Positions 1,041 to 21,854 of a stretch of DNA of 28,074 nucleotides are shown here, one piece after another (position 1 is the first letter of the stretch; each line of letters opens with the position of its first letter). The stretch spans positions 1 to 28,074 of the forward strand of contig CAVVOP010000003.1 in assembly GCA_963749915.1 (NCBI GenBank). The letters are read 5' to 3'. The notes under the pieces are model-generated. The model had not been told where the DNA came from. It worked only from the letters and a program-made list of their open reading frames with translations, and searched no databases. This stretch comes from an uncultured cyanobacterium. Lineage in GTDB: Bacteria > Cyanobacteriota > Cyanobacteriia > Cyanobacteriales > Cyanobacteriaceae. A program made the position numbers and the translations under genes.

Positions 1041-3116
1041 ATAAATTCAGATTACGAGGTTAGAGGTTGAACAGTGATTGACTACGACAAGAAATACTCA
1101 GTGATTAGTTCTCTAGCTTATCAAGAGAACTCAGATAAATTAGTAGAAAAATGAGCAACGTTTAAGGGATAATTAAATTCAGTTTTTAATTTAATTTTGG
1201 AAATGATGTTTTCAGAAGATATACAAGTTCAAACCATTAATCATTTAGGATTAATTGCTGGAGTTATAGATGAAATTGGCATTGAAGAAATTATTAATGA
1301 TGCCCTCGGTATTGACGAGAGGGAAATCGTGACAGCAGGTCAAATAGTCAAAGCAATTATTCTGAACGGATTAGGATTTATTTCTCGACCTCTTTATCTA
1401 TTTCCACAGTTTTTTAAAGACAAAGCCACAGAACATTTAATCGGAAAAGGAATACTACCTGAGCATTTGAACGATGATAGAATTGGAAGAATAATGGATA
1501 AACTTTATGAAAAAGGATTATCTTCATTATTTTTAATTATTGCTTTAGCCATAGTAAAAAAATATAATATCAATATAGATTTTTCCCATTTAGATTCAAC
1601 TTCTTTTGCAGTAGAGGGGAAATATAATCAAGAAAAAATCACCAAAAACTTGGTGAAAGAAAATGCAGAATTAGAGTTAATTAATCAAATTCCAATTAAG
1701 ATAATTAAAGGTTATTCCCGTGACCATAGACCAGATTTAAAACAATTTATTTTGGATTTAATTGTGAGTGGTGATGGTGATATTCCCCTATTTTTAAGAG
1801 TAGCAGATGGTAATGAAAATGATAGAGCCGTTTTCGGCAAAATAGCGAAAGAATACAAATCAATGATAGATTTTGAGACGATGATAGTGGGTGATAGTGC
1901 CTTATATACAGAAAATAACCTGAAATTAATGAGTGGAATAGAATGGTTATCGAGAGTGCCACTATCAATAAAAGAGGCAAAAAATTTAGTTTCAGAACTA
2001 TCAGAATCTGATTTGACTCCAAGTAGTTTAGAAGGATATTCATGGTGTGAAGTAAGGAATAATTATGCAGAAATTGAGCAAAGATGGTTAATAGTAGAAA
2101 GTGAAAAAAGAAAAGTATCAGAGCTAGAAAAACTAAGGGAAAAAATAGAGAAAGAAAAAGAAAAAACCGAAGAAATATTAAAGAAATTGATGAAAGAAGA
2201 ATTTAGCTCATCAGAGGGAGCTTATGAAACAGTTGTGAGACTAAATAAGACTTTAAAATATCATCACATAACCGAGCTAAAAATGACAGAAAGTGAGTTA
2301 AATAATCACAAGAAAAAATCGAAAAAGAAAGAAGAAAAATCGGGAAAAACTTATCAAGTTACGGCTATTTTGAAATCAGATTTAACGAAAATAAACGAAT
2401 CAAAAAAAAGAGCAGGAAGATTTGTGTTAGCTACAAATAGATTGGATAAAAGTAAATTTAATTCTGATGAAATTTTAATTAAGTATAAAGAGCAACAAGC
2501 CGCAGAAAGAGGTTTTAGTTTTCTGAAAGATCCATTATTTTTTGCAGATAGTGTGTTTTTAAAAACCCCAAAAAGAATCGAAACAATGGCAATGTGTTTT
2601 TGGGGTTATGTCTGTTAGTCTATTCTTTGGGGCAAAGAGAAGTGCGTCGCTTATTAGAGGAGAGAAAAACGGGGATAAAAAATCAGCTAGGAAAACTAAC
2701 GGAACGTCCAACGTTAAGATGGATATTTCAATGTTTTCAGGGGATTCATTTAGTAATAAATCAAGGAATAAAACAGATAGTAAATCTAACAAATGAACGA
2801 AAACTAATTTTAAGTTTTTTCCCGATTTCTTGTCATAATTATTATATTTTATCTGGATAACTTATGGGATTTAAGAGTCTAAACATTCTCAATTATAATA
2901 CCATAAATAAAGAAGAGAAAACTGATAGATTTGCTCTGTTTATTTATTCTCATTAAAGGTGAAGTTATTGACAATGAGATTTTAATTTGAGCAAAGTTCG
3001 CAAGTACAAAACGCGAATAAAGAAGATATTGAGTATTATTACTTATATTTTGTCCAAAATAAGTTGCTTGGTTTTAATACTTTTATCATCTTACAAAGTG
3101 ACGTGCGGAATGTGGG
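1034..3116 (+). mobile_element. IS1634-family element type A, copy 1 (left inverted repeat deleted)
   Basis: Near-identical to the reverse complement of 15486-17583 but missing its first 17 bp. Right inverted repeat TGACGTGCGGAATGTGGG ends at 3116. Confidence 0.92.
1197..2860 (+). pseudogene. IS1634-family transposase, frameshifted
   Basis: Motifs HLGLIAG, HLDSTSF, GYSRDHRPDLKQ and ERGFSFLKDP. A 2-nt excess near 2595-2601 relative to the intact copy splits it into 1197..2618 and 2594..2860. Confidence 0.92.
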
Positions 3117-3180: not shown

Positions 3181-4586
3181 TTAACCAGTGGGAATTGGAG
3201 GAGGAGAAAGACCTTTTCTTGCCCTCGCAATAACTTCACAAATATATGTCCAAGGATTAATACTTCTCAAACGGCAAGTTTCAATCACACTCAACAAGGG
3301 ACTGTAAGCCAAGCTACCTTCATTGGTTCTTGTCCCATAACTAATTCTTCGTCCAATCACTGCATGACGCAATGCTCTTTCCGCTTCATTGTTAGTAGGC
3401 GGTAAATCTGGATTATTAACAAATGCAATCACCGCGTCCCAATCGTTGATAATTTCTTTGGCCAAGGCTTTGAGCTTGTCATCAGATTTTTGAGAACCTA
3501 AAAAACAACTTGCTTCTAGCACCATCAAATTATTTAAAATCGTTTTTGATGATTTATCTTCCCCTTTTGCAATGGCAGCAATTAGTTCCCTTAAACTATC
3601 TAAGATCCATTTTCCTATTTGTGCCGCTTTTCGATTAACTGCTCCTGTTAAGGCAATGGCTTTTCTAATTAAATGAGCAAGGCATCTCTGCCTTTTTGGG
3701 TATGAACGATAACTTAAATAACCATCTGTGACTAACCACCCCACAAAGGCTTCTGTTACCAAATATAATAATTCTTCTTTCCTGGGAGAACCAATGTGAT
3801 ACACCGCAGTTTGACCCGAAATAGCTACCCATAACCATTGAAGATCTCCTTGAACTTCCCAATGAGTCTCATCTAGATGTAAAACTTCTACATTTTGTAT
3901 CTCTTCAATTAATTTTTCCACCACTGGACTACAGGCTATTCCTGCTTCCCGAATACATCTGTCGATGGTTCCCACACTCAATTCTGTTTCCGCCCAATCC
4001 CACAAAAATTCTTTGATTTTGACTCTACTCATTCGGTAACGCACACTTAGACTAGCAATCAAAGTTGCTAACAATGGTGTAGCTGACAAACTATTTTAAA
4101 TCCCGATTTTAGAGGTTTTAATTCGAGAACATGATACCCCATATACGGTTTCTCATTTTTAGTTATTAACTTCTGATTACAACTAACACAATAGTCGGGA
4201 TAATGAGGGATAATTTCTTCTGTAACCAGTGGTTTTGTTCGCCAAAATCCTTGTGCTCCAGGTTGTTTTCCAGGTCTTCTTTTTTTCGGAGGATCTGCTG
4301 AAGTCTGATTTTCTAGTGGTGGTACTTTTTCTTTAACGGAATCTTCTGGTTGATTATTTAATTCTGAGAGCACATCCACATCTTCTTTCTTCTTGTTTTT
4401 CGTCTGATAGGGATTATCCGTTGAAGGTGGACGGGAACTATTACTTGAGGAAAGTTCTAGTCTTTCACATTGTTCTACGGCTAATTGATGCAAATTGGTA
4501 GCAACTTCTACTAACCTCTGTTTTTCCAGAGATTCAAAGTAGCTTTTACTCATTTGTCCCAAATCATCTTTGTTTAGTTTAGCCAT
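3181..4586 (-). pseudogene. IS66-family transposase, split by an internal deletion/frameshift near 4075
   Basis: N-terminal part has SSNSSRPPSTD and RRPGKQPG. C-terminal part has HLDETHW, LVTDGY, QRCLAHLIR and PPTNNEAERALR. Confidence 0.9.
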
Positions 4587-5028: not shown

Positions 5029-5146
5029 ACAGACAAACTGACTGAAAAGCCTATTTTTCCGTTGAACAATCTTCCTTGTCTACCAATCTTCCCCCTCAAA
5101 AGATGTCTTACCCTCACCAGAATGTAAAAAAACTAACCTTGTCAGC

Positions 5147-5189
5147 TCGCCTTTTGAAGTAGCGATCGCCTTTTGAAGCAGCGATCGCC
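5147..5189. repeat. 19-bp tandem repeat with HIP1 octamers at the unit junctions
   Basis: TCGCCTTTTGAAG(T/C)AGCGA twice plus TCGCC. GCGATCGC at 5162 and 5181. Confidence 0.8.
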
Positions 5190-5514
5190 CTAATGCCAGA
5201 TTATCTATACACTCTCATTGATTGGAAATATGCTAAGGGCTTGGAGTTAACCAAAATTTACGGAAACCCTCTGAGCTTATCATTTTCCCTTCTTCAAAAT
5301 TTAGATGCGTTTGCCCTGGCTTGTATTCCTAAAAAGTTGCAAAATTTATGGAAAAGTACCTTAATGTTGGCAATGTATTAACTTCGTCTACTGTTGCTGG
5401 CTCAATCGTGAGAATGAAAATATCTTACAGTTTGAAACTTTAGTGTCAGCTTAATTTTAGTTGCACATAGCGTTAATATTGATTAGAATGGGAAAAATTC
5501 GCACTCGCAATATT

Positions 5515-6795
5515 ATGACTACTGCTCCACCAGCTATAGCATTATCTCCCTCACAGCAAGGTAAACAGTGGATTGAGCAACCATTACAATTGTTAGACTA
5601 TTGTTCTGAGCAATATGGTGATGTCTTTACTCTCGAACTGGGGGCCTTAGGGAAAACGGTTTTTTTCAGTCATCCGAAAAGCGTTGAAACAATTTTTAAA
5701 TTTCAGTCTCATCTATTTGAATGTCATCAATTTAACGTAAGCTATCGTGATTTGATGGGGAACAATGCTCTCTTTTTACAAGATGGAGAAGCTCATAAAC
5801 GCTTACGTCGTATTATGATGCCTCCTTTTCATGGAGAAAGAGTACAAAATTATGCTGTTGACATCATTAAAATAGGACAAAACCAGAGCAAAAATTGGAC
5901 AAGGGGAAAAGTTATCAAAATCCGTCCTCTGATGCACCAGATTGCCCTGCAAGCATTTCTCGAAATTACATTTGGTAGTTCTGAAGCTCCTATTAATCAA
6001 GTAAAAGATTGGTTTAACACAGAAGTTTTTAAAGAATCAAAAGGCTGGAAGCCCTGGTTTAATTATCACCACTTACACTCTAAAATCCGGCAACTCATTG
6101 CTGACGAAATTAACCTAAGAAAAGACAGGAATTCCGACACACCTGATTTATTAAATTGGTTACAATTAGCTCAAGATGAAACAGGTCAGCCTCTCACGGA
6201 AGAAGAAATTCAAGATCAAATTCTTACCCTATTAATTACCGCAGTTGATCCCCTCGCTATGGCACTCACTTGGGCGTTGTACTGGATTCATAAATTACCT
6301 GATGTCCAAGCAACCTTAAGACAAGAGCTAGAGACATTAGCTGGAAATTGCGATCCCCTCAATATTAGTCAACTTCCCTATCTCACCGCCATTTGTCAAG
6401 AAACCTTACGCATACATCCCATCCTACCAACAGTCTCAGGACGGCGACTCACTGAACGGATGGAGATTATGGGATATGATCTTGACCCTGGTGTTACCGT
6501 TGCTGCCTGTGCCTATTTAGTGCATCGACGGCCAGAAATTTATCCTGACCCCCATCTCTTTAAACCCGAAAGATTTTTAAACCAGCAATTTAGTCCCTAT
6601 GAATATTTTCCCTTTGGGGGAGGCAACCGATTATGTCTAGGTTCCGCTTTAGCTCCCCTAGAAATGAAATTAGTTATTGCCACGCTTTTATCATCCCATC
6701 ATTTATCCCTAATCAGTAAAGAACCGTTAGAAATGGTACGTTATGGGACCTTAGTTGCCCCTTCTGATCAGTTACAAATGGTTGTACTTAAGTAG
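5515..6795 (+). CDS. Cytochrome P450 (CYP110-like fold) with atypical I-helix
   Basis: Heme motif FGGGNRLCLG, ExxR (ETLR) and FKPERF. ATG 5515 preferred as start; alternatives are 5488 and 5461. Confidence 0.95.
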   Translation: MTTAPPAIALSPSQQGKQWIEQPLQLLDYCSEQYGDVFTLELGALGKTVFFSHPKSVETIFKFQSHLFECHQFNVSYRDLMGNNALFLQDGEAHKRLRRIMMPPFHGERVQNYAVDIIKIGQNQSKNWTRGKVIKIRPLMHQIALQAFLEITFGSSEAPINQVKDWFNTEVFKESKGWKPWFNYHHLHSKIRQLIADEINLRKDRNSDTPDLLNWLQLAQDETGQPLTEEEIQDQILTLLITAVDPLAMALTWALYWIHKLPDVQATLRQELETLAGNCDPLNISQLPYLTAICQETLRIHPILPTVSGRRLTERMEIMGYDLDPGVTVAACAYLVHRRPEIYPDPHLFKPERFLNQQFSPYEYFPFGGGNRLCLGSALAPLEMKLVIATLLSSHHLSLISKEPLEMVRYGTLVAPSDQLQMVVLK

Positions 6796-6827
6796 TTATC
6801 GATACCGAATAAAGAGATCTTAATCCT

Positions 6828-9800
6828 ATGGAACCCATCAACTTCAAACATTATACTTTCGTTGAACTGTTACGCTGGCGAGCCATCCATCAACCGGATA
6901 AACACGCCTACACTTTTTTAGTCGATGGCATGAAAGAAAGTGAAAGCCTGACCTACAGCGAATTAGATAGACAAGCACGGGCGATTGCTGCCCAGCTACA
7001 GATCTGGGCAGCCAAAGGAGAAAGAGCCTTGCTTCTGTATCCAGCGGGTTTGGACATTGTGAAAGCCTTTTTTGGCTGTCTTTATGCAGGGGTCATTGCA
7101 ATTCCCGCACCTTTTCCAGAAGCCAGTAGACTAAAGCGCACCATGCCCCGACTTCAGTCCATAGTTCAAGATGCCCAAGCCACTTTAGTGTTAGCCTCGG
7201 CTCAGATTTTAGAGCAATTAGAAGAATATCGTAAAATCGTTACGGAACTTCAAGCACTCAAAAGTCTTGACATTGACAAGATTGAGTCTAAACTTGCTGA
7301 TCTATGGCAAGACCCGCAAATAACCCCCCAGACCTTAGCTTATCTTCAATACACATCCGGTTCCACCTCAACCCCCAAAGGAGTCATGTTGACTCATGGC
7401 AATGTCGTGTTTCATTGTGATTGTATTCAACAAGTCTGTGAATATACAGAAGAGAGTGTTAGTGTGACTTGGTTGCCTTATTTTCATGATTACGGCTTAG
7501 TCGAAGGAATTCTTGCACCTTTGTATAACGGGACTCCCTGTTATATCATGTCTCCCTTTGCCTTTATGAAAAGGCCCCTAAATTGGCTCAAAGCTATTTC
7601 CCACTATCAAGCAACTCACACTCAAGCGCCTAATTTTGCCTACTATCAATGTATTAAAAGGATCAAGCCTGAAGAAGCGTTTTCCCTAGATCTGAAAAAT
7701 TGGCGTTCCGCTGGCAATGGAGCTGAACCCATCAATCCCAAAGTGTTACAGGATTTTTACGAAGCCTATGCCGTCACAGGCTTTCGTTGGAAGGCCTCAT
7801 GTCCTGCCTATGGACTCGCCGAAGCAACCCTGATGGTCTCTTGTTGTTCCCCTTCACGAGATCCCAAAATTAGCTATTTTGTAGCGGAAGCACTGATCAA
7901 TAATAAAGTGGTTGATGCATCACCGGGAGACACCCTAGTACGAGCAATGACCAGTTGCGGCCCCATTGTCCCTGAAACTAAAGTCGTCATCGTCAACCCA
8001 GATACCTTAAAACAATGTGCTCCTGACGAAGTTGGAGAAATCTGGGTTTCTTCTGAGAGTGTTGCCCAAGGATATTGGCAACGGGAAACTGCCACCCAAG
8101 AGACTTTTCAGGCTTATGTCGCTGATACGGGAGAAGGTCCTTTTCTGAGAACAGGGGATTTAGGTTTTATTAAAGAAGGAGAACTCTATATCAGTAGTCG
8201 CCTCAAAGATTTAATTATTATCGGTGGCACGAATCACTATCCTCAAGATCTTGAATGGACTGTCGAACAAAGTCATCCGGCCCTACGACCGAATAGTAGT
8301 GCGGCTTTTTCTATTCAAGTGGACGGGGAAGAAAAATTAGTCATTGCCCAAGAACTAGAAAGAAGGTCTATCCAAAAATCAGAAGACATCGAAGAAATCT
8401 TTAATGCCATTCGCAAGATCATCACCAAAGAACATGAACTGGCTGTTTATGCTGTGTTGCTCCTGCCAAGAGGCAGTTTACCGAAAACAGCTAGCGGTAA
8501 AATTCAGCGGAGCATTTGCTGGAAACAATTTCAACAAGGAATCTTAGAGGTAATCGCCAGTTGGATTGCAGATACCCCTTCAGCCCCATCAACCCCCGCC
8601 ACAACGATTTCTGCCATCAACCCCCCTTGTTCCCTGGTGACAGCACCGCCAGAGATCAGTAAACAACGGGCCGATCATTTGATTCAATGGTTACGTCAAT
8701 ACTCAGAAGAACGCATTGACTCTCGTTTAATTGATGAACGTCGTTGTCTTCCCCCTTATATCATCTTAGATTTTGGCAACCAGGGGATGATGGGACTACA
8801 AGTTCCTGAAAAATACGGCGGTTTGTCCCTAAAAAATCGGGATCTGCTGCGAGTCTTTGAACAACTAGCAGCCATTGATTTGAGTATTGCCTCACTGTTG
8901 TTTATTCATAACGCCAATGGTGTTCGTCCTCTGGTGGGTTATGGAACCCCCGCAGTCCAAGAAGAACTTCTCCCGTTGTTAGCGAAAGGACGAGAACTAG
9001 CCGCTTTTGCCCTCACAGAACCAACAGCAGGCTCTAATCTACCTAATCTGGGAACCATCGCCATCCCTGATGGCCAAGGGAACTGGCATTTACGAGGGGC
9101 TAAACGTTGGAATGGCTCTGGATGGGCCGGCATTGTCAATGTTTTTGCCAGAACCGTAGATGAACAAGGCAGACCAGGTCATCCCACGGCTTTTGTTGTG
9201 CGTCAAGGAATGGCTGGGTTGCGGGTGGGTCCAGAATCCTTAACCATGGGAATGCACGGCATTATGCAAAATATCATCTATTTTGATGATGTGTTGGTCA
9301 GTCCTAGCCATTTACTCGGTGAAGCCAATAAAGGCATGGATGTGGCAGAAGAAGCCATGCTGATTGCTCATTCGTGTATGGGTGCTTTGAGTGTTGGAGG
9401 GATGAAACGCTGTGCTCAACTGATGTTACGCTATGCCAGCCGTCGTCAAGTTTCTACTGGTCGTCTCCTGGATAGCCCCACTACAGCAGCTGTGTTGAGT
9501 GAACTAACGATCAAGATTACCTTGATAGAAACCTTGTTAGATCAATTAGTTAGCATCCTGGATGAAGGAGGTTATCCGCCAAAAGAAGTGGGCATGATCA
9601 CGAAAATCATCGCCACTGATTATCTTTGGCAAGCTGCTGACGACCTGGTTCAAACCTTGGGCGGAAGAGGGTATATGGAAAATAATATTGCTCCCCAAAT
9701 TTTACGCGATGCTCGAATGCTTCGCATTGGAGAAGGGGCTAATGAAATTATGACCATCACCGTCGGTAGACGGGTGTTTCACTCAGAGGCATTACACAGT

Positions 9801-10457
9801 TTTTTAAGCGATCGCCTGGGAGAGTCAGCCCTATCCCAACGACTTAAAGCGGCGGCTCAAGAAATTCAAGCTCGCTGCTTGTCTCTGGATGGACTGTTTA
9901 GTGATCGTTCTACTGCCTTATCTTGGGCCTATAATCTGATCGGTCAAGTGGGTATTTTGGGGGTTGTCTTAGCTGTGGCTCAAAGCCAAGCCCGACGTTG
10001 TTTTCCATCAGAATCCTTAAATTTGGCAGTGGCCTGGGTCGCCTGCCAATTTGAGACCACGTTAAATCAAGCTCTCAAGGGATTTCCAGCGGAATCCTTT
10101 ATTTTGAAGGCTCAACCAATCCATGATGTGATTACTCACTATGTCCAAGCGATCGGCGATCTTGAACAAAGACCGCCTGGGGTTGAAGATACCCTCGATC
10201 CGCTCCTGCGACGAGACATATCTAAGGAGGGATTTCCCGATTTTTCCCATTTGCCAGGCAATATCAATCTCGAAAATTTTGCCTCTGATACAGAAATTGC
10301 GCCCCAAGTAGCCAATTTATCTTTGGAAGAAAAGCGAGCATTAACCAAAAAGTTGCTGCTGCAAAAAGGCGCGGCTGCTAAATTAGCCACCATGTCGTCA
10401 GAACAAAAACGGATTTTGTTAGAAAAGTTACAACAAAAAAAAAGCGAATCTCACTAA
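6828..10457 (+). CDS. Fatty acyl-AMP ligase (FAAL) fused to an acyl-CoA/ACP dehydrogenase, with C-terminal docking-like helices
   Basis: YLQYTSGSTSTPKG, YGLAEATL followed by the FAAL insertion, LRTGDLG, NHYPQDLE and PKTASGKIQR. A Pro/Thr linker follows, then ACAD motifs AFALTEPTAGS, GGRGY and RIGEGANE. Confidence 0.93.
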   Translation: MEPINFKHYTFVELLRWRAIHQPDKHAYTFLVDGMKESESLTYSELDRQARAIAAQLQIWAAKGERALLLYPAGLDIVKAFFGCLYAGVIAIPAPFPEASRLKRTMPRLQSIVQDAQATLVLASAQILEQLEEYRKIVTELQALKSLDIDKIESKLADLWQDPQITPQTLAYLQYTSGSTSTPKGVMLTHGNVVFHCDCIQQVCEYTEESVSVTWLPYFHDYGLVEGILAPLYNGTPCYIMSPFAFMKRPLNWLKAISHYQATHTQAPNFAYYQCIKRIKPEEAFSLDLKNWRSAGNGAEPINPKVLQDFYEAYAVTGFRWKASCPAYGLAEATLMVSCCSPSRDPKISYFVAEALINNKVVDASPGDTLVRAMTSCGPIVPETKVVIVNPDTLKQCAPDEVGEIWVSSESVAQGYWQRETATQETFQAYVADTGEGPFLRTGDLGFIKEGELYISSRLKDLIIIGGTNHYPQDLEWTVEQSHPALRPNSSAAFSIQVDGEEKLVIAQELERRSIQKSEDIEEIFNAIRKIITKEHELAVYAVLLLPRGSLPKTASGKIQRSICWKQFQQGILEVIASWIADTPSAPSTPATTISAINPPCSLVTAPPEISKQRADHLIQWLRQYSEERIDSRLIDERRCLPPYIILDFGNQGMMGLQVPEKYGGLSLKNRDLLRVFEQLAAIDLSIASLLFIHNANGVRPLVGYGTPAVQEELLPLLAKGRELAAFALTEPTAGSNLPNLGTIAIPDGQGNWHLRGAKRWNGSGWAGIVNVFARTVDEQGRPGHPTAFVVRQGMAGLRVGPESLTMGMHGIMQNIIYFDDVLVSPSHLLGEANKGMDVAEEAMLIAHSCMGALSVGGMKRCAQLMLRYASRRQVSTGRLLDSPTTAAVLSELTIKITLIETLLDQLVSILDEGGYPPKEVGMITKIIATDYLWQAADDLVQTLGGRGYMENNIAPQILRDARMLRIGEGANEIMTITVGRRVFHSEALHSFLSDRLGESALSQRLKAAAQEIQARCLSLDGLFSDRSTALSWAYNLIGQVGILGVVLAVAQSQARRCFPSESLNLAVAWVACQFETTLNQALKGFPAESFILKAQPIHDVITHYVQAIGDLEQRPPGVEDTLDPLLRRDISKEGFPDFSHLPGNINLENFASDTEIAPQVANLSLEEKRALTKKLLLQKGAAAKLATMSSEQKRILLEKLQQKKSESH

Positions 10458-10527
10458 CATAATCCAGACAATATAGATAATATCGAGTATAATTTTAACA
10501 ATTTTATTTATCAATAGGAGATGATTC

Positions 10528-10950
10528 ATGACTGCCCAAATTATTTCTCATTTACCCACCCAAAACGATATCAAACATTGGCTGCTTAAATGGATAGCTA
10601 AAGAACTAGAATTATCCATACCTCAAATTGATACCAGTAATTCTCTTTTAGAATATAGTTTAAGTTCTATGACAGCGATGATGTTGGTAGGAGATTTAGA
10701 AGAATGGCTAAAAATAGAAATCACCCCCACTTTAGTTTGGGATTATCCTTCAATTGATGCCCTGGTTGACTATTTAGCTGAAGCAACTAAAAACCCAAAA
10801 AATGACAAAAGTTTGACGCAAAAAGAAGTAATAAAAACCGTAGATAACTTACCATCAAATAACTCAAACAATAGTCAAGCCTTACCAGATAATTTGGATG
10901 AGTTATCTGAAGAAGAAATGGATGCTTTACTTAGTGAATTATTGAAGTAA
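10528..10950 (+). CDS. Acyl carrier protein with acidic C-terminal docking-like tail
   Basis: W.L.W.A.EL...ID, YSLSSM (predicted phosphopantetheinyl Ser at 10666-10668) and PTLVWDYPSIDAL. RBS AGGAG upstream. Confidence 0.88.
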   Translation: MTAQIISHLPTQNDIKHWLLKWIAKELELSIPQIDTSNSLLEYSLSSMTAMMLVGDLEEWLKIEITPTLVWDYPSIDALVDYLAEATKNPKNDKSLTQKEVIKTVDNLPSNNSNNSQALPDNLDELSEEEMDALLSELLK

Positions 10951-11051
10951 TTGTAGGGTAAAGGAAACGATAATTACTGGGATTGTTCAGCTAAAATCCT
11001 TTTAAAAACTGAGAAATCAACCATAAATTTATTGACAAGAATAGTAAAAAA

Positions 11052-13550
11052 ATGACAAATTCTCATCAACAGATAGAGCAGCTTTCCCTTGAGCAAAAGC
11101 GCGTTTTGCTTGCTAAAATGATTGAGCAAAAAAGAAATAAAACTCAAGTATTTCCCCTATCATTGGGACAAGAACGTATTTGGCTACATAGTCAATTTAA
11201 TCCTGATAATCCTCTCTATAACGTAGCTGTAGCCTATCATTTGAAAGGAGATCTTGATCTAATTGCCTTAGAAAAGAGTTTACAAGAGATTATCAAGCGG
11301 CATCAAACCCTACGCACAACCTTTTCCCTAGAGGAGAAAAAACCTGTTCAGGTTATCTCATCTGATATTTCTTATCAACTATCAATTATTGATCTCCAAG
11401 ACATTCCAGAAAGGTTACGCCAAGAGAAAGTCAAACAATTACAAAAAGAAACCGCTAAAACTCCCTTTAATTTGACTCAAGGGCCTTTGTGGTGCATTAA
11501 ACTGTTTCGTTGTTCCCAAGAAGAACACAGTTTGCTTGTAATGATGCACCATATCATTTCTGATGGTTGGTCTTTTTATGTCTTCTGTCAAGAGTTACAA
11601 GAACTTTACCAAGCCTTTTGTCAAGGAGAAACACCTGCACTACCTGACTTAGTCATACAGTATGTGGACTTTGCTCAAAGACAACGAGAATGGTTAGAGA
11701 GTGAAGCGGTGCAAAAACAAATGACTTACTGGAAAACGCACCTAAGCGGTCAAGTGTCAACCCTTAAGTTACCCGTCAATTACTCTCAGGCAAATATGCC
11801 AATCACTCATCAGGGAACCTTCCAAGCTTTTGAGCTTTCTCCCAAGCTCAGTCAAGCCTTAAAAACCCTAAGTAAACAACAAGGTGCCACCTTGTTTATG
11901 ACCCTCAGTGCCAGCTTTCAGGCTTTGCTCTATCAATATACTGGAGAGGAGGATATGGTTTTATGTTCCCCTGTGGCCAGTCGTCATCGTCCCCAAACCA
12001 AAGAACTCATCGGGTATTTTAATAATATTTTGCCAATCCGAACTGACCTATCGGGTAATCCGAGTTTTTTGGACTTAATTAGCCGAGTGCGTCAAGTTGC
12101 TTTAAATGCCTATAAAAATCAGGATATCCCATTTCAAAAAATTATTGGTTTACCCAATCTCATTCAAACCTCTCTGACCAAAGTTTTATTTTCCGTGGAC
12201 ATGAAATGGCCGCCAGAGCTTTCTTTGACCAAGATTAGCACTGAGGCCCTGTCCATTCATACTGAACAGGTCAATTTTGATCTTTCCGTTTCTATCTGGG
12301 AAGAGTTAGACTACCTCAAGGGGGTACTAGAGTATAAAACTGACTTATTTGACCATTCCCTAATTACCCAAATGCTCCATGATTATCAAAACTTACTAGA
12401 AATTTTGGTGAATCAACCAGAGCAAACTCTGTTATCTCTGGAAGAAAAGAGCCAGTTTACTCAGAAAAAATTCCTTAACTTCCCCGATTCAGACAGACAA
12501 ACTGACTACTTGCCACCAAGATCGATTTTAGAACAACAAGTGGCACAAATTTGGGAAGAAGTTCTCGGCATTAGTCCCATTGGGGTTCGTGATAACCTAT
12601 TTGCCTTAGGGGCTTCTTCTCTGGCGGCGGCACGTCTTGTTGAGCGAATTGAAGACAGATTTAAGCAAGAATTCTCCTTAGCAACGATTTTCCACGCACC
12701 AACTATCGAACAAATCACAAATTTGGTTAATACTAATGATGCTTCTGTCTCGATTTCGTCCCTAGTCCCCCTACAACCTGATGGAGATAAACCACCACTC
12801 TTCCTTTGTGGAGGTGTGGGGATTTATTCTAATTTGATTCCTTATTTGGGAGTAGATCAGCCATTGTATGGGTTAATTAGAGTCAGGAATGAGGTAGATT
12901 CGCTAAGCGTAGCAGAGATTGCCGCTCAGTATCTGATAGAAATCTCTAAGGTTCAGTCCCAAGGCCCCTATTTTCTTGGTGGTGTTTCTTTTGGGGGGCT
13001 GGTCGCTTTTGAGATAACACAACAGTTACTCTCAAAAGGAGAAAAGGTAGCACTCCTGGCTTTATTTGATACCCCAGGGCCAGGAGCTTATCAACTCAAA
13101 CCGCTTCACCTACGAATGTTCGGCCATTTGAGTAATCTCTTTCAATTCGGTTTACCTTATTTTCAAACAAAGATAGAGAAAAAATTGCCAAAATTGCTCC
13201 GAAACCGGATACTCTCGAAGAATACCCAAGGCCCCGACTTTTCCACGAAAATGATCTCTAATCAATTATTCAGACAATTAGCCAAAGCCAGTGCTAAAGA
13301 ATATCAGTACAAAGTTTATCCAGGAAAGATTACGCTTTTTAGTTTAAGTCAAAGGGAAGCCTTGACAGACTCTTTATTTGATCCAGCCCTTGGATATGTT
13401 GATCCCCTTTTAGGTTGGGGAGCGATCGCCACTCAAGGAGTGGAATCTTATGAGATCCCTGGAGAACATACCACTATCTTAAGAGAACCCCATGTCAAAC
13501 TCCTTGGGGAAAAACTGAAGCTCTGTTTAGACAAGGCACACACTGCTTAA
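11052..13550 (+). CDS. NRPS-like protein with condensation, thiolation and thioesterase domains (no adenylation domain)
   Basis: C domain: PLSLGQERIW, RHQTLRT, HHIISDGWS. T domain: IWEEVLG..LFALGASSL..IFHAPTIEQ. TE domain: GPYFLGGVSFGG, PGEHTTIL. Confidence 0.92.
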   Translation: MTNSHQQIEQLSLEQKRVLLAKMIEQKRNKTQVFPLSLGQERIWLHSQFNPDNPLYNVAVAYHLKGDLDLIALEKSLQEIIKRHQTLRTTFSLEEKKPVQVISSDISYQLSIIDLQDIPERLRQEKVKQLQKETAKTPFNLTQGPLWCIKLFRCSQEEHSLLVMMHHIISDGWSFYVFCQELQELYQAFCQGETPALPDLVIQYVDFAQRQREWLESEAVQKQMTYWKTHLSGQVSTLKLPVNYSQANMPITHQGTFQAFELSPKLSQALKTLSKQQGATLFMTLSASFQALLYQYTGEEDMVLCSPVASRHRPQTKELIGYFNNILPIRTDLSGNPSFLDLISRVRQVALNAYKNQDIPFQKIIGLPNLIQTSLTKVLFSVDMKWPPELSLTKISTEALSIHTEQVNFDLSVSIWEELDYLKGVLEYKTDLFDHSLITQMLHDYQNLLEILVNQPEQTLLSLEEKSQFTQKKFLNFPDSDRQTDYLPPRSILEQQVAQIWEEVLGISPIGVRDNLFALGASSLAAARLVERIEDRFKQEFSLATIFHAPTIEQITNLVNTNDASVSISSLVPLQPDGDKPPLFLCGGVGIYSNLIPYLGVDQPLYGLIRVRNEVDSLSVAEIAAQYLIEISKVQSQGPYFLGGVSFGGLVAFEITQQLLSKGEKVALLALFDTPGPGAYQLKPLHLRMFGHLSNLFQFGLPYFQTKIEKKLPKLLRNRILSKNTQGPDFSTKMISNQLFRQLAKASAKEYQYKVYPGKITLFSLSQREALTDSLFDPALGYVDPLLGWGAIATQGVESYEIPGEHTTILREPHVKLLGEKLKLCLDKAHTA

Positions 13551-13585
13551 TTTTCTGTTATCAACCCAACCCCCCTTCTATTGAT

Positions 13586-15175
13586 ATGATTGCCACCGAC
13601 GACATCAGTGCCAAAAAAGCGAATCACCTCATTAACTGGCTACGAACTTATGCGAACAAACGCATCAACTCTCGTCTGATTGATGAACGTCGTTGCATTC
13701 CTCCCTATATTGTTCTTGATTTCGGTAATCAAGGCATACTAGGAATGCAAGTTGCTCAAAAGTATGGGGGACTCGCTCTCAAGAATTACGATGCCCTGCG
13801 GGTTGTTGAACAACTTGCGGGAATCGATCTCACCTTAGCAACCTTTGTGGTAATCAATAATTTTCTCGGCATTCGTCCTGTAGAACGTTATGGAACGGAA
13901 ACCTTGAGAGAAGAACTTTTACCCATTCTGGCCACCGGCCGGGAATTGGCCGCCTTTGCTTTGACAGAACCTAATGCTGGTTCTAATCCCGGATTACTCT
14001 CAACCACGGCGATCGCTGATGGTCAAGGGTGCTGGCAGTTGCAAGGAAAAAAAATCTGGATTGGTTCAGCATCCTGGGCGGGAGTCATCAATGTTTTTGC
14101 GAAATTATTAGATCATGATCACAAACCTCAGGGCATCACGGGGTTTACCCTACGACAAGGAACCCCCGGACTCAACCATGGCCCTGAAGTCTTAACTATG
14201 GGAATGCGTGGCATAGTACAAAATGCCATAGAACTTGAGTCAGTTCCTGTGAATACAACCAATCTCTTAGGGAACATTGGCTCAGGGATGGCAGTCGCCC
14301 AAGATGTCATGTTATTTACTCGTCTGGCCATTGGGGTTAAAAGTGTTGGTGCCATGAAACATTGTGCTCAATTGATAATGCGCTATTCTAACCGTCGTAC
14401 CATTAGCACAGGGGTCTTAATTGATAACCCTGTAACTCGTGTTCGTGTGAGCTATCTCACGGCATCTATTACTGCCCTTGAAACGTTGGTCTATCGAATT
14501 GCTCAATTGCTCGACGATGGTTTTTCGGTTCCTCTTGAGGGATATATTGTCTGCAAAACCGCTGGTTCTGAATTTCTTTGGCAGGCGACTGATTATCTCA
14601 TTCAAATTTTAGGGGGTCGTGGGTATATCGAGACAAATATTGCGCCCCAAATCCTACGGGATGCTCGAATATTTCGCATTTTTGAAGGCCCGACTGAAAC
14701 CCTCAATATGTTTTTGGGATCTTCATTAATTCGACCCAGAAAGGAACTACAGCAGTTTTTTTGCCACGATCTTGGGGCTGTTGAAATTTGGGACAATCTG
14801 ACAACTAAGGTCAAAGAAATTGAAGAAAGATGGACAAAATCTCCTGGTTTTTTTTCTGATATCAATTCTGCCCGTAATTGGGCTGCCAGTTTGATTGGTG
14901 AACTAGGAACCTACGCTATTTTGCTGGCAACAGTACAAGAAAAATTTAATAAAAAGCCATCCGGTCAGTTGCGTCGTGCCATTGATTGGACTCAAATTCA
15001 GTTTGAACTTACCTTTCAAAAAGCGTTGAGTGACTCATCGCTTAATTCTGTTCTCCAAAGTCCTAATGAAGCTCGAGATTTGATCTCCTCTTATACTGAA
15101 ACCATTGGTGAACTTGAACAAACTCTCTTGGGTGAGGAACAATCACTTGACGATTTTCTACAAATATGGAGTTAA
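13586..15175 (+). CDS. Acyl-CoA/ACP dehydrogenase family protein
   Basis: Motifs AFALTEPNAGS, GKKIWIG, GGRGY and RIFEGPTE. Paralogous to the ACAD domain of 6828..10457. Confidence 0.93.
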   Translation: MIATDDISAKKANHLINWLRTYANKRINSRLIDERRCIPPYIVLDFGNQGILGMQVAQKYGGLALKNYDALRVVEQLAGIDLTLATFVVINNFLGIRPVERYGTETLREELLPILATGRELAAFALTEPNAGSNPGLLSTTAIADGQGCWQLQGKKIWIGSASWAGVINVFAKLLDHDHKPQGITGFTLRQGTPGLNHGPEVLTMGMRGIVQNAIELESVPVNTTNLLGNIGSGMAVAQDVMLFTRLAIGVKSVGAMKHCAQLIMRYSNRRTISTGVLIDNPVTRVRVSYLTASITALETLVYRIAQLLDDGFSVPLEGYIVCKTAGSEFLWQATDYLIQILGGRGYIETNIAPQILRDARIFRIFEGPTETLNMFLGSSLIRPRKELQQFFCHDLGAVEIWDNLTTKVKEIEERWTKSPGFFSDINSARNWAASLIGELGTYAILLATVQEKFNKKPSGQLRRAIDWTQIQFELTFQKALSDSSLNSVLQSPNEARDLISSYTETIGELEQTLLGEEQSLDDFLQIWS

Positions 15176-15224
15176 GCGAGGAAGACAAAATACTCCTTAT
15201 AAGGGGTAAATCGAAGGTTCGTGC

Positions 15225-15444
15225 GATGAAGTAGTCCAAAAATTAGCTGACGAAAAGTTAATTGTGACGAACCAGTTAACTGAGAAGGAAGCAGGAGTAG
15301 TAATTGATGTTGCCCATGAATCCTTAATTCGTCATTGGCAGCAACTGCAACAGTGGGTAAATGAAAACCGTGAGGCGATTAGAATGAGGCGATTAGAATC
15401 GGGAGAAGGATTGAGACTTCTGCCGCAGAGTGGCAAAGCCAATG
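15225..15444 (+). pseudogene. Fragment of a STAND (nSTAND1-like) NTPase/WD40-type gene
   Basis: Translates DEVVQKLADEKLIVT...VIDVAHESLIRHWQQLQQWVNENRE, matching the post-NTPase 'AHE.LIR.W..L..W' motif. A 14-bp duplication at 15371-15398 shifts the frame. Confidence 0.7.
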
Positions 15445-15485
15445 AGTTGTTCCATTTTAATTGCACAGGTCAAAAAATATTATAA

Positions 15486-17583
15486 CCCACATTCCGCACG
15501 TCACTTTGTAAGATGATAAAAGTATTAAAACCAAGCAACTTATTTTGGACAAAATATAAGTAATAATACTCAATATCTTCTTTATTCGCGTTTTGTACTT
15601 GCGAACTTTGCTCAAATTAAAATCTCATTGTCAATAACTTCACCTTTAATGAGAATAAATAAACAGAGCAAATCTATCAGTTTTCTCTTCTTTATTTATG
15701 GTATTATAATTGAGAATGTTTAGACTCTTAAATCCCATAAGTTATCCAGATAAAATATAATAATTATGACAAGAAATCGGGAAAAAACTTAAAATTAGTT
15801 TTCGTTCATTTGTTAGATTTACTATCTGTTTTATTCCTTGATTTATTACTAAATGAATCCCCTGAAAACATTGAAATATCCATCTTAACGTTGGACGTTC
15901 CGTTAGTTTTCCTAGCTGATTTTTTATCCCCGTTTTTCTCTCCTCTAATAAGCGACGCACTTCTCTTTGCCCCAAAGAATAGACTAACAGACATAACCCC
16001 ATCAACATTGCCATTGTTTCGATTCTTTTTGGGGTTTTTAAAAACACACTATCGGCAAAAAATAATGGATCTTTCAGAAAACTAAAACCTCTTTCTGCGG
16101 CTTGTTGCTCTTTATACTTAATTAAAATTTCATCAGAATTAAATTTACTTTTATCCAATCTATTTGTAGCTAACACAAATCTTCCTGCTCTTTTTTTTGA
16201 TTCGTTTATTTTCGTTAAATCTGATTTCAAAATAGCCGTAACTTGATAAGTTTTTCCCGATTTTTCTTCTTTCTTTTTCGATTTTTTCTTGTGATTATTT
16301 AACTCACTTTCTGTCATTTTTAGCTCGGTTATGTGATGATATTTTAAAGTCTTATTTAGTCTCACAACTGTTTCATAAGCTCCCTCTGATGAGCTAAATT
16401 CTTCTTTCATCAATTTCTTTAATATTTCTTCGGTTTTTTCTTTTTCTTTCTCTATTTTTTCCCTTAGTTTTTCTAGCTCTGATACTTTTCTTTTTTCACT
16501 TTCTACTATTAACCATCTTTGCTCAATTTCTGCATAATTATTCCTTACTTCACACCATGAATATCCTTCTAAACTACTTGGAGTCAAATCAGATTCTGAT
16601 AGTTCTGAAACTAAATTTTTTGCCTCTTTTATTGATAGTGGAACTCTCGATAACCATTCTATTCCACTCATTAATTTCAGGTTATTTTCTGTATATAAGG
16701 CACTATCACCTACTATCATCGTCTCAAAATCTATCATTGATTTGTATTCAGAAGCTATTTTGCCGAAAACTGCTCTATCATTTTCATTGCCATCTGCTAC
16801 TCTTAAAAATAAAGGAATATCACCATCACCACTCACAATTAAATCCAAAATAAATTGTTTTAAATCTGGTCTATGGTCACGAGAATAACCTTTAATTATT
16901 TTAATTGGAATTTGATTAATTAACTCTAATTCTGCATTTTCTTTCACCAAATTTTTGGTGATTTTTTCCTGACTATATTTCCCCTCTACCGCAAAAGAAG
17001 TTGAATCTAAATGGGAAAAATTGATGTTGATATTATATTTTTTTACTGTGGCTAAAGCAATAATTAAAAATAATGAAGATAATCCTTTTTCATAAAGTTT
17101 ATCCATTATTCTTCCAATTCTATCATCGTTCAAATGCTCAGGTAGTATTCCTTTTCCGATTAAATGTTCTGTGGCTTTGTCTTTAAAAAACTGTGGAAAT
17201 AGATAAAGAGGTCGAGAAATAAATCCTAATCCGTTCAGAATAATTGCTTTGACTATTTGACCTGCTGTCACGATTTCCCTCTCGTCAATACCGAGGGCAT
17301 CATTAATAATTTCTTCAATGCCAATTTCATCTATAACTCCAGCAATTAATCCTAAATGATTAATGGTTTGAACTTGTATATCTTCTGAAAATATCATTTC
17401 CAAAATTAAATTAAAAACTGAATTTAATTATCCCTTAAACGTTGCTCATTTTTCTACTAATTTATCTGAGTTCTCTTGATAAGCTAGAGAACTAATCACC
17501 GAGTATTTCTTGTCGTAGTCAATCACTGTTCAACCTCTAACCTCGTAATCTGAATTTATACAGTTTGACGTGCGGAATGTGGG
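15486..17583 (-). mobile_element. IS1634-family element type A, copy 2 (complete)
   Basis: 18-bp inverted repeats CCCACATTCCGCACGTCA (15486-15503 and 17566-17583). 6-bp target duplication TTATAA at 15480-15485 and 17584-17589. Confidence 0.95.
15742..17403 (-). CDS. IS1634-family transposase (intact, 553 aa)
   Basis: Uninterrupted ORF with the same motifs as copy 1. Confidence 0.95.
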   Translation of the reverse strand: MEMIFSEDIQVQTINHLGLIAGVIDEIGIEEIINDALGIDEREIVTAGQIVKAIILNGLGFISRPLYLFPQFFKDKATEHLIGKGILPEHLNDDRIGRIMDKLYEKGLSSLFLIIALATVKKYNININFSHLDSTSFAVEGKYSQEKITKNLVKENAELELINQIPIKIIKGYSRDHRPDLKQFILDLIVSGDGDIPLFLRVADGNENDRAVFGKIASEYKSMIDFETMIVGDSALYTENNLKLMSGIEWLSRVPLSIKEAKNLVSELSESDLTPSSLEGYSWCEVRNNYAEIEQRWLIVESEKRKVSELEKLREKIEKEKEKTEEILKKLMKEEFSSSEGAYETVVRLNKTLKYHHITELKMTESELNNHKKKSKKKEEKSGKTYQVTAILKSDLTKINESKKRAGRFVLATNRLDKSKFNSDEILIKYKEQQAAERGFSFLKDPLFFADSVFLKTPKRIETMAMLMGLCLLVYSLGQREVRRLLEERKTGIKNQLGKLTERPTLRWIFQCFQGIHLVINQGIKQIVNLTNERKLILSFFPISCHNYYILSG

Positions 17584-20494: not shown

Positions 20495-20846
20495 TTAGAT
20501 TATTAGCGAAATATCATTATTATTTAAGTAATAAATAAGAAGTTTTATTGACAATAAGAGCATTTCTTGACACTTAGAATAGCAAAATGTTTTTCTATGT
20601 AGTCTTGCCAAATAATGTCTTAGCCTACTATTTTCTCCTTCAACTCTTGTCATGTATGTTTTACTAATAATTTGATCTCCATCGGGAATAAATGACGGAT
20701 AAACTTTGTACCCATCTGTTATCCAAAAAAAGCATTTCCAATCTTTTACTTTTTCCCATAATTTTTCAAATGTATTAGAACTTCTATCTCCTATTTGCCA
20801 TTCTAAAATTCCTTTTTTAGCTTTATTTACAGCAGTCCATATCCAG
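20495..20846 (-). pseudogene. IS1-family transposase (InsB-like), C-terminal remnant
   Basis: Motifs WIWTAV, IGDRS, ITDGYKVY and MTRVEGENSRLRHYLARLHRKTFCYSK. The 5' part is replaced by IS1634. Confidence 0.9.
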
Positions 20847-21854
20847 CCGACATTCAGCAGGTTAATGTGGAAAAAAAATAATTTTATAGCACTACGCATT
20901 CAGGGAACGGACATATAATTAGAATCAAGAGGGCGAGCTGCTTGCAGCAGCGCTTCGCTCCCGCTAAATGGAAAGGGAGATCGTTAAAGTTTCGACGATT
21001 TAGTCTAGCTCCCTAGGTAGGCTAAGTGATAAAGTATTCTGAGATTTTAGCAAGTTTTTCTCTCAAGACAATGAAACAACCTCTGGACATTGATGTACAG
21101 GACATTGATCATCTCGGGATAATCGCAGGCATCATCGATGAAATCGGGATAGTGGAAATCATTAATCGTCTTTTGGGAACACATCCCTTGGAAGAAGTCA
21201 GTGCTGGTAATGTGGTCAAAGCCTTAATTCTCAATTGCTTAGGCTTTCTCACCGCACCCCTATATCTGTTTAGCCAGTTTTTCGAGGGCAAAGCCACGGA
21301 ACACTTGATTGGACCAGGCGTGAAACCAGAACAACTCAACGATAGTCGCATTGGTCGAGTACTTGACCAGCTGTTTAAAGCAGGACTGACCCCTGTGTTT
21401 ATAGAGATTGCCTTGGCTGTAGTGAAACGGTTTGGGGTGAGTACTAAACGAGCTCATCTCGATAGCAGCAGCTTCTGTGTACAGGGGGAATATCTCAATT
21501 CTCAGCCAGAGACTAACTTAGGTGAGAGCAGACCTCTAGAGCAATCCAGTGAGCAGAAGGCACAAGCAGAGGATTCAGCAGAGCCCGTACCGATTGAGAT
21601 TACCCACGGCTATTCGAGGGACTATCGCCCTGACCTGAAGCAGTTTACCCTGGCGCTAATCACTAGTGGAGATGGGGATGTCCCGTTGTACTTACGAGTG
21701 GGCAATGGCAACGATGCTGACCAAGCCGTTTTTACTGAAGTAATTGGGGAATTTCAGCAGCAGTGGAAAGCCGCACAGCCTGAAGTCTATGTGGCTGATG
21801 CAGCCCTCTACAGTGAAGAGAACATTGAAGTGTTAGGAGAGACCCCTTGGATTA

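Follow-up and report, generated by a model that had tools for sequence, protein, structure and literature searches.

A compact cassette of five genes, apparently a complete pathway for tailoring a fatty acid, occupies the middle of the 28,074-bp stretch analysed here (the window), which is the whole of contig CAVVOP010000003.1 (C3) in assembly GCA_963749915.1 of an uncultured cyanobacterium from the family Cyanobacteriaceae (genome of 4.69 Mb in 34 contigs, 100% complete). In order, the genes encode a cytochrome P450, a fusion of a fatty-acid-AMP ligase (FAAL) with an acyl-CoA dehydrogenase (ACAD), a stand-alone acyl carrier protein (ACP), a protein with condensation, carrier and thioesterase domains (C-T-TE) but no adenylation (A) domain, and a second, stand-alone ACAD. 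We tentatively favour the reading, plausible although slightly more apt to prove wrong than right, that the FAAL charges the ACP with a fatty acid, which both ACADs and the P450 modify while it is bound there; the C domain would then pass it to its own T domain, and the TE would release a modified fatty acid or a lactone.

All five open reading frames (ORFs) are intact and lie on the forward strand between positions 5515 and 15175 (Table 1). The gaps between them are 32, 70, 101 and 35 bp, the second of which places the cognate carrier gene 70 bp downstream of the FAAL-ACAD gene. The frames are free of frameshifts, since their lengths equal those of the orthologues, and the original prediction, made from the letters of the window, was right in describing five tightly spaced co-oriented frames. 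It had also listed the FAAL as the sole activating enzyme, together with two carriers, one C domain, one TE, two ACADs and a P450, and Pfam agrees with this inventory: no amino-acid-type A domain and no ketosynthase (KS) was detected among the five proteins, nor any KS in the window. The cassette domain matches are far stronger than chance allows. The P450 frame is open from an upstream TTG, but the ATG at 5515 is its likely start because the orthologues align from residue 17-19 of the TTG-started frame.

The cassette recurs elsewhere as a unit. With the C-T-TE protein as query, 401 genomes of the phylum yielded full-length stand-alone relatives in eight other genomes, two of which carry the cassette, and a tblastn search of plasmids added a third case. 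Genome G122 (locus L017) has all five genes in the same order, with 53-68% identity, between pyrF and unrelated genes. The same set, with 57-76% identity, is present on plasmid Cy782201 of Gloeothece verrucosa PCC 7822 (L106), where its neighbours are a giant CARDB protein, a sugar-type MFS transporter, glf and a GH1 gene. In G202 (L016; the C-T-TE protein is named from Gloeocapsa sp. PCC 73106) we find a four-gene core of FAAL, ACP, C-T-TE and ACAD with 55-72% identity, without the P450 and without a fused ACAD, flanked by glycogen phosphorylase, SDR and GHL10 genes on one side and by a KDPG aldolase gene on the other. None of these three loci has polyketide synthase (PKS) or non-ribosomal peptide synthetase (NRPS) genes, or a KS, beside the cassette. 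Thus, in line with the original prediction, it is a self-contained unit and not a truncated remnant of a locus with extra PKS or NRPS genes.

At the same time, the cassette is rare and patchy, being plasmid-borne in one strain and placed on an IS-bounded contig in the window (IS, insertion sequence). An orthologue of the stand-alone ACAD adjoins a C-T-TE gene in 2 of 400 other genomes of the order; among genomes of the same genus, the ACAD orthologue was found in none of the six searched and the C-T-TE in neither of the two searched. Such scattered occurrence, on a plasmid and next to IS DNA, suggests an accessory trait exchanged among cyanobacteria. A search of genome contigs with a single cassette protein yielded three distant partial matches, and a scan of metagenome contigs with generic C-domain patterns returned 70 ordinary multimodular NRPS loci and no cassette, which is uninformative on the range of the cassette.

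The assignment of the activating enzyme is consistent across databases. The top NCBIfam families of the FAAL domain are fatty-acid-AMP ligases (PRK05850, 1e-131, and FadD32, 7e-120, both under the equivalog cut-offs), MbtM is also among the NCBIfam matches, and the closest solved chains are FAALs (7r7e-g, 5e-157; 3kxw, 1e-132; FadD23/32/28). Orthologues of the FAAL-ACAD fusion share 68% identity in L017 and 76% in L106. The P450 is closest among solved structures to CYP120A1 (4e-37), and its orthologues are 62% identical in L017 and 68% in L106.

Both ACADs of the cassette retain the glutamate motif, RIGEGANE at residue 966 of the fusion and RIFRIFEG at residue 361 of the stand-alone enzyme, the latter aligned to the same motif of VLCAD; we take the glutamate of this type of motif to be the catalytic base. 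The two are 49% identical. A phylogeny of 17 ACAD sequences separates the cassette enzymes into two fully supported clades (100% each), one of the four stand-alone ACADs and one of the three fused ones, so that the two enzymes are separately conserved orthogroups and not redundant copies. The nearest solved relatives of the stand-alone ACAD are ACAD9 and VLCAD (about 1e-45), and the C-terminal extension is present; its orthologues share 65% identity in L016, 60% in L017 and 69% in L106. VLCAD and ACAD9 belong to the long-chain dimeric type with a C-terminal extension, and the VLCAD-like character of this enzyme therefore suggests long chains.

Fusions with this type of ACAD are more widespread than the cassette. 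The ACAD type of the FAAL-ACAD fusions occurs in 32 of 401 genomes of the order, mostly within frames of 1200-1350 aa, and in ten loci fetched around such ACADs no C-T-TE was found. The fused ACADs of the three five-gene cassettes form a clade of their own, apart from the other sampled fusions. FAAL, ACAD and ACP units had been expected usually to feed a PKS, and indeed the fusions of L026 and L029 lead into KS-AT-ACP modules, while L033 has desaturases and a flavin monooxygenase. A published example of a fused FAAL-ACAD is NvlI from the nostovalerolactone pathway of Nostoc punctiforme, whose FAAL is proposed to activate octanoate, which the adjacent ACAD would oxidise before PKS extension (PMC9324945). 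The fused arrangement is common to NvlI, the window, L017 and L106 but not L016; in contrast to NvlI and the L026 and L029 fusions, which feed type I PKS, the window has no KS after the fusion and its ACP is encoded by a separate gene. Apart from these, L028 (G008:C1:2005000-2024999) is another compact FAAL cassette without PKS or NRPS genes. Besides a FAAL-ACP-aminotransferase fusion of 1151 aa, it encodes a sulfotransferase, an SDR, a stand-alone ACAD that belongs to the same family, a symporter-family protein of the bile-acid/sodium type and an alpha/beta hydrolase.

Charged helices at the protein termini suggest how the carrier could find its partners. The ACP has its likely phosphopantetheine serine at Ser47; its SSM motif and tail are conserved in the alignment, the second Ser alone being retained in PCC 7822. 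At profile positions 2-90 it matches the NCBIfam model of the FadD32-loaded N-terminal ACP of Pks13, and it shares 25% identity with the T domain of the C-T-TE protein. It ends in an acidic helix, LDELSEEEMDALLSELLK, while the FAAL-ACAD protein ends in two tandem basic helices (LSLEEKR... and SSEQKR...) and the C-T-TE protein begins with a basic helix, of which residues 13-28 are modelled as helical by AlphaFold2 (AF2). Each of the four FAAL cassettes repeats this pattern: the FAAL or FAAL-ACAD closes with one or two basic LSLEQKRxLLxKL-type helices, the same kind of helix opens the C-T-TE, and an acidic helix of the form LSEEEMDALLSxLL ends the ACP. The basic-helix pattern had no match among the ORFs of L028 and of six loci with a FAAL-ACAD fusion (L025, L026, L029, L030, L031 and L033), the seven other FAAL loci that were scanned.

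Of the two carriers of the cassette, only the stand-alone ACP has an acidic tail that complements the basic helices. We infer that one ACP tail would meet first its loader and then the C domain, while the embedded T domain would give the FAAL no comparable handle. Because the single acidic tail fits the loader first and then the C-T-TE helix, the ACP is the probable donor carrier. The resemblance of the ACP to the N-terminal ACP of Pks13, and of the T-TE part to the C-terminal ACP-TE of Pks13, is in agreement.

The C-T-TE protein keeps its catalytic residues in all three domains. It has HHIISDG in the C domain, LGASSL with Ser523 in the T domain, and in the TE a GVSFG motif with Ser646 followed by Asp673 and His806. 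In an alignment of 28 C-T-TE proteins H167, D171, S523, D673 and H806 are invariant, and S646 is retained in at least 90%; the sole protein of this alignment with a Cys as the TE nucleophile (GRCMGG) is L023:9125-11626 from G170. The AF2 model (mean pLDDT 82.1) contains the C, T and TE domains joined by short linkers, the C-T linker covering only residues 469-483 (disordered, pLDDT <50), and thus leaves no space for a degraded A domain. The T-TE part resembles the C-terminal ACP-TE of Pks13 (2.9e-29 in NCBIfam, about 1e-18 against solved Pks13 chains). Compared with solved chains, the C domain matches ordinary C domains at 2e-72 and the CDA starter C domain at 2e-13; the closest are peptide-forming C domains of the ordinary kind, together with the first, acyl-accepting C domain of PvdL.

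This architecture is abundant, and the C domain belongs with others that lack an A partner. The best 120 relatives of the C-T-TE protein are mostly of 770-930 aa with the same three domains, and 3889 proteins of this architecture make up a single ESM Atlas cluster. In a FastTree phylogeny of 130 C domains, sampled from the best matches of the query only, a clade of 75 rows, all A-less, has 97% support (one row had been mislabelled by a crude rule; its Pfam list shows no A domain). A branch with SH-aLRT 98.4 sets 37 A-less rows apart from the others in a mixture-model IQ-TREE phylogeny of 65 C domains; these rows were picked after viewing the FastTree result, with a divergent A-less group (P0060, P0055, P0041 and P0071) and L021 left out. 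The window protein falls into a 99%-supported subclade of six FAAL-type sequences, with the proteins from PCC 7822, G202 and G122 and two contig proteins, and a sister clade of 31 rows consists of metagenomic C-T-TE proteins. Its C domain groups with those of 4-hydroxybenzoate (4-HBA) cassettes, the FAAL-type and 4-HBA-type proteins being 35-39% identical, and not with C domains taken from C-A-T modules. Searching at class level with P0011 gave already-known proteins plus two further A-less loci of another type.

Twelve loci with an A-less C-T-TE were examined (the window, L016-L023, L106, L113 and L114), and in nine of them a stand-alone adenylating enzyme and a small carrier adjoin the C-T-TE. 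Four are the FAAL cassettes, in which these two are the FAAL and the ACP (window, L016, L017 and L106). In L019 and L022 Pfam identifies DAHP synthase, chorismate pyruvate-lyase, a stand-alone A enzyme, an ACP of 85-87 aa, the C-T-TE and an FAD enzyme, halogenase-like in L019; L020 is included by its ORF layout, which equals that of L019 and L022, its domains not having been scanned. This gene order we take to be the ambigol layout Ab7/Ab5/Ab6/Ab8/Ab9/Ab10. L113 and L114 (G708 and G920) combine a stand-alone A enzyme (Pfam), an ORF of 85-89 aa that is ACP-like by BLASTP only (2e-8), an A-less C-T-TE, an asparagine-synthase-like amidotransferase and an NAD-synthase-like protein; to our knowledge this cassette corresponds to no described pathway. 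As a separate observation, the L114 cassette adjoins glycosyltransferases and a DegT aminotransferase. Among the remaining three loci, L023 has a stand-alone A enzyme and a halogenase (a carrier was not looked for there), and the C-T-TE proteins of L018 and L021 have a TubC_N docking domain and follow C-A-T modules. Nine of the twelve loci thus share one plan, which combines a single loader and a single small carrier with tailoring enzymes and an A-less C-T-TE. A role in hand-over and release fits this better than the joining of two acyl units does, because the C-T-TE clade follows one loader and one carrier in differing pathways.

The following sequence of reactions can be proposed. The FAAL would adenylate a medium- or long-chain fatty acid and thioesterify it to the ACP, as expected from its family membership. 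The fused ACAD, the stand-alone ACAD and the P450 would then act on the acyl-ACP, with desaturation and oxidation as the likely reactions and 2-enoyl or dienoyl chains bearing a hydroxyl or an epoxide as likely products. The acidic C-terminal helix of the ACP is predicted, from the conserved charge-complementary motifs, to dock on the basic N-terminal helix of the C-T-TE protein. By analogy with what is reported for Ab9, the C domain would take the acyl chain off the ACP and place it on the phosphopantetheine thiol of its own T domain, and the TE would either hydrolyse the chain or, if it is hydroxylated, lactonise it. What is observed directly is the gene set, its integrity and stand-alone conservation, the catalytic motifs and the C-T-TE clade; every chemical step is deduced from these.

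The closest parallel is the 3-chloro-4-hydroxybenzoate branch of the ambigol pathway (Duell et al. 2020; Kresna et al. 2021, Org Biomol Chem 19:2302). In vitro, 4-HBA is reported to be loaded onto Ab8, its ACP, and chlorinated; Ab9 then passes it, by way of its C domain, to the Ab9 carrier, from which the Ab9 TE releases it. The roles of loader, carrier, on-carrier tailoring enzyme and C-T-TE, reportedly filled there by Ab6 (A), Ab8 (ACP), Ab10 (halogenase) and Ab9, are also filled here, and the window C-T-TE falls into the same clade as those of three cyanobacterial 4-HBA cassettes with ambigol-like gene order. In contrast to ambigol, the substrate in the window would be a fatty acid activated by a FAAL instead of 4-HBA, tailoring would be by two ACADs and a P450 instead of a halogenase, and the cassette seems to be a whole pathway, not a supplier of building blocks within a larger cluster. 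The window ACP also has a long acidic tail, whereas the short ACPs (85-87 aa) of the ambigol-like 4-HBA cassettes do not.

Loading of a carrier by a FAAL followed by acyl-ACP dehydrogenation is known from mycobactin biosynthesis, in which MbtM, MbtL and MbtN (FadD33, ACP and FadE14) cooperate: the FAAL loads the ACP and the ACAD desaturates the acyl-ACP at position 2,3. There, a GNAT enzyme transfers the chain to a lysine of the siderophore core, whereas the window has a C-T-TE and encodes no acceptor scaffold. The flow proposed here is also similar to that of FadD32 and Pks13, where the FAAL charges a first carrier, a central domain passes the chain to a second and a TE off-loads it. However, the central domain is KS-AT in Pks13 and C in the window, so no Claisen condensation or carboxyacyl extender is expected. 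The Pks13 TE transfers the acyl chain to trehalose. Compared with an NRPS lipoinitiation module (C-starter, A, T), the window lacks an A domain for an acceptor amino acid. Olefin or other KS chemistry was dropped since no KS is present, and beta-lactone formation and isonitrile lipopeptide pathways were dropped because their gene sets do not seem to match.

An A-less C-T-TE is also described in syringomycin biosynthesis, where chlorothreonine is loaded and tailored on the separate carrier SyrB1 and shuttled by SyrC to the T domain of the terminal A-less C-T-TE of SyrE (PMC8949500). That C-T-TE ends a nine-module NRPS, its carrier is filled through the SyrC shuttle and its C domain forms a peptide bond; the window, on the other hand, has no upstream NRPS modules or peptide, no SyrC-like gene and no amino acid.

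Several points weigh against the proposed hand-over and release of a tailored chain. A C-T pair is elaborate where a lone thioesterase could hydrolyse the acyl-ACP, which leaves room for a real condensation. The identity of only 35-39% means that the FAAL-type and 4-HBA-type proteins may differ in function. The hand-over step depends on the chemistry reported for Ab9, by way of the 4-HBA cassettes with ambigol-like gene order. No gene for an electron-transfer flavoprotein or ferredoxin partner lies within the cassette. Repeat and IS DNA reaches to within 35 bp of the P450 start, so the native promoter may have been lost; promoter-like sites (21 versus 19.5 in shuffled sequence) and terminator-like sites (12 versus 10.4) are not in excess. 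In addition, no cassette gene is covered by the contigs of the RNA libraries, although these are environmental contigs and cannot show absence: those of libraries X2-X4 are confined to the 5392-5479 repeat and to the IS end (15480-15800), apart from one 56-base piece in X4 at 15112-15167 with a depth of 2.3, and the DNA run X1 has low-depth pieces of the cassette genes.

The original prediction had suggested a FAAL that loads both carriers and a C domain that joins two acyl units or acylates a free nucleophile. We found nothing in favour of it. In the two-chain version, the C domain would form, for instance, an estolide ester with the ACP-bound chain as donor and a chain on the T domain, hydroxylated by the P450, as acceptor, and the TE would release or cyclise the dimer. 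Two carriers do face a single loader, the HHxxxD motif is intact, so that true condensation is possible, and three of the four cassettes have a P450, a potential source of a hydroxyl nucleophile. Nevertheless, the L016 core, without a P450 and with one ACAD, supplies no such nucleophile, the carriers are only 25% identical, with the tail that fits the FAAL helix on the ACP only, and related C-T-TE proteins serve aromatic-acid cassettes with one loader and one carrier, whose product is reportedly a monomer; we consider joining of two chains quite improbable. The T domain might instead receive an amino or hydroxy acid in trans, either from an enzyme whose gene lies elsewhere or through a shuttle of the SyrB1/SyrC/SyrE kind, with the C domain N- or O-acylating it to a lipoamino acid or similar conjugate. 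Both the nearness of the C domain to peptide-forming C domains and the first C domain of PvdL, and the precedent of SyrE, which ends in an A-less C-T-TE with a shuttle-filled T domain (PMC8949500), speak for this. But the genes of all four cassettes include neither an amino-acid A domain nor a SyrC-like transferase, the single further NRPS-like A domain of the window's genome has its own T and reductase, and the partner would need to be kept in four unrelated genomic settings, which makes loading in trans clearly unlikely.

Hand-over might also be followed by transfer, if the TE, similarly to that of Pks13, passes the chain to a sugar, glycerol or envelope lipid and so produces a glycolipid or lipid ester. 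The match of the T-TE to the Pks13 ACP-TE agrees with it, as do the sugar-type MFS transporter, glf and GH1 genes near the PCC 7822 cassette and the glycosyltransferases that adjoin the C-T-TE in L021 and L114. The sugar-related neighbours are not kept across the four cassettes, however, and the sequence of a TE cannot separate hydrolysis from transfer; such an outcome is unlikely. Finally, the copy in the window could be a silent passenger, intact but unexpressed or non-functional, a view that concerns its activity and not its role. The 28-kb contig is mostly IS copies, with repeat and IS DNA almost at the first start codon, no cassette gene lies under RNA contigs, and the searched genomes of the genus have neither the ACAD (0/6) nor the C-T-TE (0/2). 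Against this stand five full-length frames with every catalytic motif, and environmental RNA contigs, as noted, cannot prove silence. We regard a silent copy as very improbable, and prefer the hand-over and release of a tailored acyl chain.

Each part of such a pathway has a precedent, including loading by FAAL-ACAD, acyl-ACP dehydrogenation and the A-less C-T-TE. The new element is their combination into a complete fatty-acid pathway of four or five genes, not a new machinery. The gene set had been noted as unlike any described pathway, and we likewise found none in the literature, nor any paper with the PCC 7822 accessions or this combination of domains, in a search that most subscription journals lay outside.

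By the usual logic of assembly lines, a condensation domain requires an acceptor that an adenylation domain has loaded. The window and the large family of A-less C-T-TE proteins have no adenylation domain to load one, and the cassette of four or five genes is perhaps the simplest system for asking whether an A-less C domain hands over a thioester, forms an ester or has some other activity. An accessible system exists, because the cultured strain Gloeothece verrucosa PCC 7822 has this cassette on a plasmid. The cassette is also a good target for genome mining. A free fatty acid that has been tailored, or a lactone, is a possible product; some such compounds act as signals or antimicrobials in other bacteria. 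A bolder extension, which we think unlikely to hold in full, is that these genes form a full, mobile route to a small diffusible lipid, such as a 2-enoic acid similar to the diffusible signal factor (DSF), a hydroxy-dienoic acid or a lactone, made by acyl-ACP dehydrogenation and not by the RpfF crotonase route, and that the A-less C-T-TE proteins are widespread hand-over and release modules whose C domain makes a thioester and not an amide. If this were true, they would constitute a widespread and barely studied class of modules for carrier-to-carrier hand-over and release.

Table 1. Features of the window, positions counted from its first letter
Feature	Position (nt)	Strand	Details
Cytochrome P450, 426 aa	5515-6795	+	From ATG; ORF open from TTG 5461; Pfam p450 5e-68
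FAAL-ACAD fusion, 1209 aa	6828-10457	+	Pfam AMP-binding 2e-66; three Acyl-CoA_dh 3e-29, 1e-16, 3e-16
FAAL part of fusion	6855-8567	+	Residues ~10-580
ACAD part of fusion	8652-10208	+	Residues ~609-1127
Tandem basic helices of fusion	10314-10454	+	C-terminus
Stand-alone ACP, 140 aa	10528-10950	+	Pfam PP-binding 2e-12
Likely phosphopantetheine serine of ACP	10666-10668	+	Ser47
Acidic helix of ACP	10894-10947	+	C-terminus
A-less C-T-TE protein, 832 aa	11052-13550	+	Pfam Condensation 1e-96; PP-binding 4e-15; Thioesterase 1e-13
Basic helix of C-T-TE	11073-11138	+	N-terminus
C domain	~11145-12470	+	
HHIISDG of C domain	11547-11567	+	
LGASSL of T domain	12606-12626	+	Ser523
GVSFG of TE	12981-12995	+	Ser646
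Asp673 of TE	13062-13076	+	
His806 of TE	13461-13475	+	
Stand-alone ACAD, 529 aa	13586-15175	+	Pfam three Acyl-CoA_dh 1e-27, 2e-19, 2e-15; VLCAD/ACAD9 type
RIFRIFEG of stand-alone ACAD	from 14666	+	Residue 361
IS piece	5029-5319		2 other copies in own genome (blastn)
Repeat of ~85 bp	5392-5479	.	Directly 5' of P450 start; 4 other copies in own genome, 99-100% identity (blastn)
IS1634-like element	15486-17403	-	Right boundary of cassette; transposase 15742-17403, intact, 553 aa; Pfam DUF4277 and DDE_Tnp_1
IS1634-like copy	1197-2860		Broken into 473 + 88 aa
IS66 pieces	3181-4586		
RTX-repeat protein, 812 aa	17565-20003	+	Six RTX calcium-binding nonapeptide stretches; weak Chlamydia PMP repeat match
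IS1 fragment	20495-20899		
Third IS1634-like copy	21026-21871 + 23080-23949		Split by IS630-like insertion
IS630-like DDE_3 insertion	21868-22980		
IS4	24185-25341		Split
Second DDE_3 copy	26178-26948		Truncated
ABC ATPase ORF	from 27369		Runs off contig end

The bounds of the cassette are given by mobile DNA on both sides, in agreement with the earlier description of IS and remnant sequences around it: an IS piece ends at 5319, the repeat that follows is the left edge of cassette-specific DNA, and the IS1634-like element begins at about 15486. Because the repeat and this element flank it, cassette-specific DNA extends over about 5480-15485. The end sequence of the IS1634-like element has at least 50 blastn matches in the same genome, many at 97-100% identity. 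No direct or inverted repeats that would define a composite transposon flank the cassette, and Rfam has no match in the window. The GC content of the cassette is 42.5% versus 37.5% for the genome, which places it in the top 6% of windows of equal size, while the GC3 of its genes falls inside the genome spread; composition is thus a weak hint of foreign origin. The repeat sits within long, high-depth contigs of three environmental RNA libraries and is possibly a small mobile element or a piece of a transcribed repeat.

Outside the cassette, whole and fragmentary IS copies fill almost all of the contig; the exceptions are the gene of an RTX-repeat protein and the beginning of an ABC ATPase gene. 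The IS1634-like family is represented by an intact, a broken and a split copy, the last interrupted by an IS630-like insertion. The RTX-repeat protein, encoded between IS copies, may be secreted or located at the surface.

In the genome as a whole, the only condensation-domain match is that of the window C-T-TE. Other adenylating and PKS genes lie on other contigs, namely an olefin-synthase-like frame of 2802 aa, a small FAAL-KS cluster and an A-MT-T-R gene on contig C8 (MT, methyltransferase; R, reductase), the sole further NRPS-like gene, which has its own T and reductase. All four KS matches are likewise on other contigs, and there is one phosphopantetheinyl transferase gene of Sfp size. 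The second small FAAL cluster of this genome (L105, G000:C21:699000-712000) encodes a FAAL, a 453-aa protein without a Pfam match, KS-AT, an ACP, a 636-aa protein with only TubC_N, an SDR and a glycosyltransferase similar to monogalactosyldiacylglycerol (MGDG) synthase, and may constitute a glycolipid pathway.

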